Source of the DNA: a bacterium
GTDB taxonomy: Bacteria; Babelota; Babeliae; Babelales; JAUWHS01
DNA: 63,172 nucleotides
Direction of reading: 5' to 3'
Assembly (NCBI GenBank): GCA_043818275.1
Contig: JBDRFY010000062.1
Span: 1 to 63,172 of the forward strand
Shown: one piece after another, positions 1,220 to 45,535 of the stretch
Layout of the letters: each line of letters begins with the position of its first letter
How positions within the stretch are numbered: the first letter of the stretch is position 1
The notes under the pieces: generated by a model
The model's input: the letters and a program-made list of their open reading frames with translations, nothing else
The model's database searches: none
Told to the model about the DNA's origin: nothing
Translations under genes and position numbers: made by a program

Positions 1220-1452
1220 CAAGCCTCGGGTGAGGAGCGAAGCGACGTAACCGGTGGTATAAAAAAATCACCCCCATAACAAAGCCCCATTTATGGGGCG
1301 ACAAAATAAAGCGCTCAACGGCTTAAAAGCCGTTGTATCAGCGCGGAATTCTTCTGCATCCTTCGCATAAAGCTTCGGAGCACCCTGCGAAGTTTTACAC
1401 GAAGAAGGGGGAGCCAACCCTACTTCGCTAAAGCTTCGGAGGACAAGAAAGC
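1220..1452. repeat. Mosaic of GC-rich hairpin repeat modules
   Basis: agcctcgggt..aaccggtgg resembles the family-2 module. Hairpins are gccccatttatggggc and caacggcttaaaagccgttg. The words catccttcgc, cttcgctaaagcttcgg and gcttcggaggacaag recur elsewhere in the window (32771-32856, 45213-45450, 51483-51497, 58359-58374). Confidence 0.7.
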
Positions 1453-32770: not shown

Positions 32771-32856
32771 CTGGCCGTGCCATCCGAAGCTTTTTCTCTT
32801 TCGCTAAAGCTTCAAAGAATATCCTCCGAAGTTTTAACGAAGGAGGAAGCGAAGGA
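32771..32856. repeat. GC-rich repeat island directly abutting the tRNA-Val 3' end
   Basis: The minus strand reads CCA|tccttcgcttcctccttcgttaaaacttcggagga...gctttagcgaaag. It shares the words catccttcgc, ttcgttaaaacttcg and cgctaaagcttc with 1358-1440 and 45226-45450. Confidence 0.7.
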
Positions 32857-32932
32857 TGGTAGGCACGAGCGGATTTGAACCGCTGACCCTTGCTACGTCA
32901 AAGCAATGCTCTACCAACTGAGCTACGCGCCT
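32857..32932 (-). tRNA. tRNA-Val (anticodon GAC)
   Basis: Hand-folded cloverleaf: acceptor AGGCGCG/CGTGCCT, anticodon stem TTGCT/AGCAA, loop TTGACGT, T-arm AGCGG TTCAAAT CCGCT, encoded CCA. Confidence 0.9.
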
Positions 32933-44969: not shown

Positions 44970-45045
44970 TGGAGCTGGCAACTGGACTCGAACCAGCGAC
45001 CTGCTGATTACAAATCAGCTGCTCTACCAACTGAGCTATGCCAGC
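44970..45045 (-). tRNA. tRNA-Thr (anticodon TGT)
   Basis: Hand-folded: acceptor GCTGGCA/TGCCAGC, anticodon loop TTTGTAA, T-arm GCTGG TTCGAGT CCAGT, encoded CCA. Confidence 0.9.
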
Positions 45046-45135
45046 AGAAATTTCAGTCCGTCTACGTTACACTTCGACGCGACATTCGTTTTACCCTAAA
45101 ATCATTGCATCGTAGCTCGTAAGAGCGAAGACGAA
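45046..45135. repeat. GC-rich CGAAG/CTTCG-type spacer island between tRNA-Gly and tRNA-Thr
   Basis: cgtctacgttacacttcgacgcgacattcg ... cgtagctcgtaagagcgaagacgaa, abutting the tRNA-Gly CCA end. Confidence 0.55.
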
Positions 45136-45212
45136 TGGAGCGGGAAACGGGGCTCGAACCCGCAACCTACAGCTTGGAAGGCTGTCGCTCTAGCCAATTG
45201 AGCTATTCCCGC
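45136..45212 (-). tRNA. tRNA-Gly (anticodon TCC)
   Basis: Hand-folded: acceptor GCGGGAA/TTCCCGC, anticodon loop CTTCCAA, T-arm GCGGG TTCGAGC CCCGT, encoded CCA. Confidence 0.9.
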
Positions 45213-45450
45213 AAAAATTTCAATTCTGCTTCGTTAAAACTTCGCAGAACAAGTCCTTAAACTTGCTGTAAAAGAACTTTTTTTATCTAAAAAACTTTTT
45301 CTTAAAAACTGGCTTGCCAGTCCTCCGTAGCCTTGGCGTAGGAGGACAACCTTCGCGCAATTTTTCTATCAATATCAATCATTTAAAAAGATTGCTTGCC
45401 AACCGAAGCCCATACAACTTTTGCTAAGCTTCGAAAGTAAGGGCGAAGGA
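45213..45450. repeat. GC-rich repeat mosaic between tRNA-Tyr and tRNA-Gly
   Basis: Contains ctgcttcgttaaaacttcgcag (45226-45247), gccagtcctccgtagccttggcgtaggaggac, and gcttgccaaccgaagcc...ttgctaagcttcgaaagtaagggcgaagga directly abutting the tRNA-Tyr CCA. Confidence 0.65.
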
Positions 45451-45535
45451 TGGTGGGGAGAACAGGATTCGAACCTGTGAAGGCTGAGCCAACGGATTTA
45501 CAGTCCGTCCCCTTTGACCGCTCGGGAATCTCCCC
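45451..45535 (-). tRNA. tRNA-Tyr (anticodon GTA, long variable arm)
   Basis: Hand-folded: acceptor GGGGAGA/TCTCCCC, anticodon loop CTGTAAA, long variable arm, T-arm ACAGG TTCGAAT CCTGT, encoded CCA. Confidence 0.9.

Follow-up and report, generated by a model that had tools for sequence, protein, structure and literature searches.

tRNA operon spacers of a Dependentiae genome probably hold gene-less copies of a nuclease-linked hairpin element that sits directly after the encoded CCA

The repeat-filled spacers behind several tRNA genes of the window (63,172 nucleotides, positions 1 to 63,172 of contig JBDRFY010000062.1, assembly GCA_043818275.1) are probably gene-less, MITE-like copies of a small selfish, nuclease-linked hairpin element that abuts the encoded CCA of a tRNA or tmRNA gene on its 3' side. 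The full element consists of a first hairpin (hairpin 1), a TGGC-N3-GCCA hairpin, an AT-rich spacer, a distal arm and an inverted second hairpin (hairpin 2), which is followed by a nuclease gene. The explanation rests on direct observations of this anatomy, of the near-exclusive location at tRNA ends, of the link to the gene across phyla, of gene decay by deletion, of turnover among relatives and of exact insertion without duplication.

The operon that contains the filled spacers reads, on the minus strand, tRNA-Tyr, tRNA-Gly(tcc), tRNA-Thr(tgt), tRNA-Thr(ggt), rpmG, tRNA-Trp and secE. The original prediction, made from the letters of the window, was that repeat islands begin exactly at the CCA ends of the tRNAs, and the three junctions on which it was based are as quoted: the CCA is followed by TCCTTCGCCC at tRNA-Tyr (45451-45535, minus strand), by TTCGTCTTCGCTC at tRNA-Gly-tcc (45136-45212, minus strand) and by TCCTTCGCTTCC at tRNA-Val-gac (32857-32932, minus strand, with the boundary at 32856/32857). 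The spacers had been called GC-rich, which they are only moderately, with 37-47% GC versus 31% for the window.

The Tyr-to-Gly spacer holds a gene-less long form (45304..45450, on the minus strand like all parts of the operon described below), whose left junction is the encoded CCA of tRNA-Tyr (gta; 45451..45535, called by ARAGORN and Rfam). Its parts, namely hairpin 1, a degenerate TGGC..GCCA hairpin, an AT-rich spacer, a distal arm A' and hairpin 2 with a TGGC-AA-GCCA tail, follow one another in the same order as in the full cassettes on C50, C18 and C21 of the assembly. Hairpin 1 (TCC-TTCGC ... GCTTC-GGT-TGG, 45399..45450) contains one T.T mismatch, its left end being TCC where both partners predict ACC, and its 3' arm pairs with the CCA of the tRNA as well. 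Nested in its loop is a 33-nt module (45410..45442) that recurs as an insert in the trailers of Ile, Leu-caa, Phe and Leu-cag. The degenerate hairpin, TGGC..GC(C)A with TTTTT after it, occupies 45385..45401. With one mismatch, the distal arm A' (GCGAAGGTTG, 45347..45356) is complementary in reverse to CA and the 8 nt that open the element, and the resulting long-range helix is part of the RNA minimum-energy fold. Hairpin 2 (TCCTCC-TACGC-CAAG-GCTAC-GGAGGA) is found at 45321..45346, and in full copies this hairpin lies just upstream of the GIY-YIG start codon. The AT-rich stretch at 45248..45303 corresponds to the position of the nuclease gene in full copies, and no remnant of the gene was detected there by tblastn. 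It is followed by a small module of the same grammar (CTG-CGAAG-TTTTAA-CGAAG-CAG, 45226..45247), of which approximately 19 copies exist genome-wide and whose loop recurs in hairpin 2 of foreign cassettes. The last 13 positions of the spacer (45213..45225), just 5' of tRNA-Gly, are retained original spacer with the motif ATTGAAAT, which precedes tRNA-Gly in relatives both with and without the element.

Behind tRNA-Gly (tcc; 45136..45212, ARAGORN and Rfam), the spacer to the next tRNA contains a compact, decayed copy (45056..45135) that has no TGGC..GCCA part. This copy begins with a 6-nt variant start, TTCGTC-TTCGC, in a truncated hairpin 1 (45110-45135), continues with a distal arm that pairs with CA+TTCGT (45083-45092) and ends in hairpin 2 (45056-45083); the corresponding site of a same-genus genome is empty. 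No element is present behind tRNA-Thr (tgt; 44970..45045, minus strand). The copy behind tRNA-Val-gac (32771..32856, minus strand) has a hairpin 1 with TCC/GGA arms, two nested modules (32822-32847 and 32794-32819) and the end TGGC-ACG-GCCA, and here too the congener's site is empty. The recurrence of the 15-nt core TTCGTTAAAACTTCG at 32822-32847 was predicted correctly; the correction is that this copy lies on the opposite strand to that at 45230-44, and the two are therefore inverted relative to their tRNAs. A looser third copy of the core is indeed present, at 1383-1411. It falls within a dispersed composite of same-grammar modules (1357..1444, plus strand) that adjoins no tRNA, lacks the CCA...TGG and TGGC..GCCA features, and recurs nested in the Leu-cag and Met trailers. 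The word catccttcgc, which had been noted in this region, is there, one base before its predicted place (1357-1366, not 1358-1367).

The assembly that holds the window (G000; Dependentiae, 1.33 Mb in 92 contigs, 30.8% GC) contains 44 tRNA genes, 42 of them with an encoded CCA end. The pentamer TWCGC is found at +4 to +8 after the CCA in 20 of these 42 tRNAs, as compared with 0.03 expected from its genome frequency (binomial P ~1e-50). The predicted enrichment of the motif 3' of tRNAs throughout the genome is thereby borne out, and the contrary outcome, in which other tRNAs lack the motif and its occurrences fit chance, is not what is seen. The complete module consists of the CCA followed by NNN-TWCGC-loop-GCTWC-N'N'N'-TGGC-N3-GCCA, in which NNN and N'N'N' covary. 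In a slightly relaxed spelling, it is present behind 24 tRNAs and the tmRNA (25 parsed copies). The strict module after a CCA has 21 matches. Annotated tRNA or tmRNA ends account for 19 of them, and in front of each of the other two stands a 9-nt stump with the exact sequence of a tRNA 3' end, that of tRNA-Asn in one case and that of tRNA-Thr in the other. Approximately 39 further modules with the same grammar and without the CCA/TGG features are located elsewhere in the genome, including that at 1357-1444, as compared with none in a shuffled genome.

The two matches away from tRNA genes lie at C73:31545-31600 and C5:9360-9401 (minus strand), and their stumps read GGGGAGCCA (the tRNA-Asn end) and CCAGCTCCA (the tRNA-Thr-tgt end). 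The stumps are either remnants of lost tRNA copies or an indication that the element sometimes carries a tRNA end along. It was also observed that the internal GCCA of the element is often directly abutted by a new NNN-TTCGC module, as in GCCA followed by ATCTTCGC or by TTCTTCGT. Such modules occur in the trailers of Ile (C5), Phe (C69), Glu-ctc (C79) and Lys (C6) in G000, in the foreign locus L021 and behind Ser-gga of the congener; the internal CCA may itself be a target, or these cases may represent a fixed longer variant.

The order of parts after the CCA is NNN, TWCGC, a loop or nested module, GCTWC, N'N'N' and TGG, the last of which is able to pair with the CCA of the tRNA, and then C-N3-GCCA, which closes the small hairpin. 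Long forms additionally possess an AT-rich stretch of 30-50 nt, a 10-nt distal arm and a second hairpin in which the motif is inverted. In sequence, the distal arm is CA plus the element's opening 8 bases in reverse complement, with 0-1 mismatch in 11 tRNA trailers. The element is always oriented as the tRNA is.

The proposed covariation check was performed on 79 parsed copies, 25 from G000 and 54 foreign, in all of which the module begins at offset 0 after the CCA. The variable pairs NNN:N'N'N' are Watson-Crick in 95% of cells, as compared with 61-65% in shuffles (maximum 79%), and all four pair types are present at two of the three variable positions. Among the 237 variable-pair cells, just three are G.T and one is A.C; in the CCA:TGG helix, a further four A.C cells fall at its A:T pair. 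TGG stands opposite the CCA in 75 of the 79 copies, and TG stands opposite CA in the distal arm. Such strict complementarity, in this small sample of sequences, looks more like a DNA inverted repeat than a selected RNA helix. In one Chthoniobacteraceae MAG (L060), the tRNA end reads CCC instead of CCA and its partner GGA instead of TGG, which is possibly a compensatory exchange of the A:T pair in the CCA helix; this is a single case with an uncertain call of the tRNA end.

The nuclease genes tied to the element all lie outside the window. G000 contains six small GIY-YIG genes, four of which are located 150-300 nt behind a same-strand tRNA with element parts in between. These belong to the four full copies, behind Arg-cct, Arg-tct, Asp and Glu-ttc, in which the gene for an 80-81-residue GIY-YIG protein begins approximately 20 nt after hairpin 2 on the strand of the tRNA. 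The encoded proteins match the Pfam GIY-YIG family with E values of 1e-12 to 1e-16, and the catalytic motifs are conserved in the 80-residue protein (Y3, Y5, Y17, G19, R27, H31, N32 and E63). Among solved structures, SLX1 and UPF0213 are closest to them, and none of the chains returned bore the name Ssn. A second kind of small GIY-YIG gene, of 91-109 residues with an FYVYML..GYT motif and only approximately 30% identity to the tRNA-linked kind, is present at C18:20539-20781 and C75:30799-31071, in neither case behind a tRNA.

Species-representative genomes were scanned with the four proteins, and more than 500 relatives were found. The best 80 foreign loci with an 80-residue relative were examined. 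At 62 of them, a tRNA or tmRNA on the same strand ends no more than 400 nt upstream and has the same parts abutting its CCA; of the remaining 18, seven have too little upstream sequence to judge. The tRNAs are of many kinds, and the hosts, CPR groups among them, include members of Dependentiae, Alpha- and Gammaproteobacteria, Verrucomicrobiota, Saccharimonadia, Peribacteria, Doudnabacteria, Cloacimonadota and Bdellovibrionota. In the nuclease tree, phyla are mixed within well-supported clades and the four copies of G000 fall in three places, although some of this mixing could be bin contamination. The element is also carried by cultured bacteria, namely Asticcacaulis taihuensis, Sneathiella, Nitratireductor rhodophyticola, Pelagibius and Marinibaculum pumilum, so that its mechanism is directly testable. 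At one foreign locus (L050, a Rhodospirillales MAG), the GIY-YIG gene is preceded by a complete tRNA-Ser, then by a partial, CCA-ended 3' fragment of a tRNA and then by the element, an arrangement in which an older tRNA end appears to have been displaced.

Two loci of G000 reveal how the gene is lost. The Asn trailer retains the last 17 codons of the nuclease gene directly after hairpin 2, and at C6:11653-12017, behind tRNA-Glu-ttc, residues 47-80 of a second copy (its 3' half) come after an intact gene, which indicates that the gene-less forms are deletion products of gene-bearing ones. The arrangement on C6 also points to a site where the element either inserted more than once or decayed in tandem. 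Gene-less copies outnumber gene-bearing ones in G000 by about 21 to 4; as in MITEs, they have their ends in common with the gene-bearing element, are the more numerous form and carry internal deletions. Among the loci compared, no conserved right-end structure was found 3' of the nuclease gene, and the Arg-cct site of the congener gives no right boundary because synteny ends there. Some foreign loci contain a second, partial copy of hairpin 1 3' of the gene, which may be an older element pushed downstream.

Turnover of the element was followed at orthologous tRNAs. Among 17 relatives with the operon, the Tyr-to-Gly spacer is short and free of the element in eight (7-45 nt), filled in seven and AT-rich with no recognisable element in two; in the seven filled spacers, the element abuts the CCA and differs in its triplet or start (GTC, TAC, ATC, GTT and TTCGCC). 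The Gly-to-Thr spacer measures 9-33 nt in 15 of 18 relatives. The same-genus genome (G001) has tRNAs that are mostly 93-100% identical to those of G000. A clear module is present in G000 and not in G001 behind Gly-tcc, Val-gac, Phe, Met, Asn, Arg-tct and Leu-cag; an eighth tRNA, His, has a variant start in G000 and an empty site in G001. Ser-cga, Thr-cgt and Lys-ctt are filled only in G001, and Tyr, Asp, Pro, Ser-gga, Val-tac and Arg-cct carry different variants in the two genomes. At Phe and Met, the downstream flank of the congener resumes directly after the insert and shows no duplication, which places the insertion exactly after the CCA, without target duplication. In metagenome contigs of four DNA runs that were compared with the operon, no empty allele of the organism of G000 was found; the matches were confined to tRNA parts, which are conserved, and to a single contig with short spacers that belongs to another organism (L016 type).

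A wider survey of 251 Dependentiae genomes used the junction pattern of a T-arm, 15 nt, CCA, NNN and TWCGC, for which the reversed control gave approximately 0. The number of copies ranges from 0 to 29 per genome, 199 of the 251 genomes having 1-29, and several genomes that are 97-99% complete have none. The variant triplet is largely uniform within some genomes, and one dominant triplet per genome is expected after a burst from one master copy. The suggestion in the original prediction that the elements target tRNA 3' ends is supported by the near-exclusive location, the presence or absence at orthologous tRNAs and the insertion exactly after the CCA.

The same prediction offered processing or termination structures as the other possibility. 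In its full form, this would make the trailers functional RNA parts of the tRNA precursors, in which the helix sequesters the CCA and directs 3' processing, the TGGC..GCCA hairpin with its T-run terminates transcription, and selection acts on the RNA. The fixed orientation, the start exactly at the CCA and the covarying helix would all agree with such a role, as would the fold of the Tyr trailer with its long-range CA+8 helix, which is somewhat better than that of shuffles (z = -2.1), and the T-run after the small hairpin in 10 of 22 G000 copies. However, the same tRNAs are without the element in the congener and in many other relatives, and several genomes that are nearly complete have no copy at all; such gain and loss among close relatives make a required tRNA-processing signal unlikely. 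The T-run is found in just 7 of 48 foreign copies. Two of the window's trailers are internal to an operon, and a terminator scan returned nothing terminator-like in any of the trailers, with no structure that qualifies as an intrinsic terminator. The three G.T cells among the 237 variable pairs are unlike typical RNA helices, and the fold of the Gly trailer is no better than that of shuffles (z = -0.3). There is no Rfam family for the trailers, the search against Rfam 15, at gathering score and with E up to 10, having returned only tRNAs and noise. On the strength of turnover, fold, terminator and Rfam results, the element can be explained with no role in processing or termination, and we consider this alternative improbable as the reason for its existence. 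Some RNA-level role is nevertheless possible, with room left for it by the strict orientation and the co-transcription with tRNAs.

Somewhat less probable still is a REP-like nature of the modules, in which the Y1 (IS200/RAYT-type) transposases of the genome would move them in trans and the GIY-YIG gene would be just a frequent neighbour. G000 does encode five intact Y1 transposases (C36:2823-3164, C59:425-766, C76:3903-4241, C60:13535-13876 and C33:18482-18841) and one interrupted by a stop, and a fixed short target, the lack of duplication, hairpin ends and fixed orientation are the behaviour of IS200/IS605 and REP sequences. However, the repeats beside the Y1 genes are not TWCG modules but belong to a different family, with hairpins of the GGGTTAAAACCC type and the CACCCC..GGGGTG type, which makes the Y1 products unlikely drivers, and at 62 loci from a range of phyla the hairpin architecture accompanies the GIY-YIG gene. 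Four of the Y1 genes are 149-residue paralogues flanked by this second family, which is present in the window as well, at 1200-1330, where it adjoins TWCG modules.

That the 5' part of the element is a self-cleaving ribozyme, which cuts at its own first base and releases a finished CCA like the theta/HDV-like ribozymes behind phage tRNAs, is very improbable, since the start at the base after the CCA and the internal-loop motifs (TWCG twice) conserved across phyla are outweighed by the lack of any ribozyme family match, theta/HDV-like and hatchet included, in Rfam 15 even with E up to 10, a first base that can be T, G, C or A, a cleavage site that would fall within a Watson-Crick helix, and decayed copies that persist behind tRNA genes such as Gly-tcc.

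A selfish, nuclease-linked element thus remains the preferred explanation; such an element appears to be mobile, and we infer its way of moving from the sequences compared. In the proposed mechanism, the nuclease would recognise the TWCG hairpins as single-stranded DNA, hairpin 1 on one strand and hairpin 2 on the other, and would nick at the boundary between the CCA and NNN. The internal TGG (or TG) may pick the CCA target by pairing, in the manner of IS200/IS605 guide sequences, and host repair enzymes would complete the move. The strong tRNA promoters upstream probably give the nuclease gene its transcription, and effects on the tRNA transcript, such as CCA pairing and the occasional T-run, would be by-products. 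GIY-YIG enzymes are DNA hydrolases that form no covalent intermediates and cannot alone join strands, which leaves the joining step of this mechanism unexplained; the Y1 transposases encoded in the genome could act on the element in trans. A bolder version, in which the element would be a transposon that is autonomous and belongs to a mechanistic class of its own, with an 80-residue GIY-YIG protein acting on single-stranded hairpin DNA and a guide N'N'N'-TGG that pairs with the target and directs duplication-free insertion after the CCA, is put forward only tentatively and is, in our estimation, doubtful. If the guide sets the target, the element would be a very small, re-addressable insertion machine.

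A literature search that covered few subscription journals returned no description of a tRNA-end GIY-YIG element, and the element is apparently undescribed so far. The closest parallel is provided by the Ssn proteins, single-strand-specific GIY-YIG nucleases that are accompanied by NTS/SRM hairpin repeats (Chenal et al. 2025, PMC11893778) and whose authors note a likeness to insertion sequences (PMC11893778). In both systems, a tiny single-domain GIY-YIG protein adjoins hairpin repeats, the repeats are amplified genome-wide, and gene-less repeats far outnumber genes (PMC11893778). However, tRNA is nowhere mentioned in PMC11893778, whereas the tRNA-end element has a defined target, the CCA end, and its hairpins lie upstream of the gene, whereas those of Ssn lie on both sides (PMC11893778). 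Ssn proteins are defined as single-domain GIY-YIG proteins of approximately 90-100 residues in the cd10448 clade, and the tRNA-linked protein has 80-81 residues. A further mark of the Ssn system is a site-specific cut in single-stranded DNA beside the hairpin. The SRM consensus (HGTCWY..YYVSBRH..WNVSBRG..RNCYNB) has no match in G000, and 0-2 matches are obtained in Markov-1 simulated genomes.

The element resembles IS200/IS605 and the REP/REPIN-RAYT systems in its hairpin ends, in its many gene-less derivatives and in the way it inserts, namely immediately after a short fixed sequence, on the 3' side, always in the same orientation and without target duplication. Its internal TGG, complementary to the flanking CCA, also resembles the IS200/IS605 guides, the guiding function being putative here. 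The enzyme is nevertheless different, a GIY-YIG hydrolase and not an HUH tyrosine transposase, and no Y1 gene lies in or beside the element. The Seg and Mob genes of phage T4 are free-standing GIY-YIG homing endonuclease genes, and segB lies in the T4 tRNA cluster, so that a selfish GIY-YIG gene among tRNA genes has a precedent. Those proteins, however, are at least approximately 200 residues long, possess a DNA-binding domain of their own beside the catalytic one and home between alleles, as compared with 80 residues here, and the same variant behind many different tRNAs is not obtainable by homing via flanking homology. The palindromic elements of Rickettsia and the GC-rich palindromes that flank tRNA genes in fungal mitochondria are likewise GC-rich palindromic repeats in AT-rich, reduced genomes, some near tRNAs and some nested or inside genes, but neither an associated nuclease gene nor a base-exact CCA junction is known for them.

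The element would account for recurrent 'structured tRNA trailers' that are open to being mistaken for RNA motifs, and it would present a natural case of target choice, maybe via base pairing, by a very small protein, as well as of tRNA operon spacers in reduced genomes shaped by selfish DNA. Nuclease-linked hairpin repeats as such are known from REP/RAYT and Ssn/SRM; the apparently new part is that tRNA and tmRNA genes of many bacterial phyla are hit base-exactly at their CCA.
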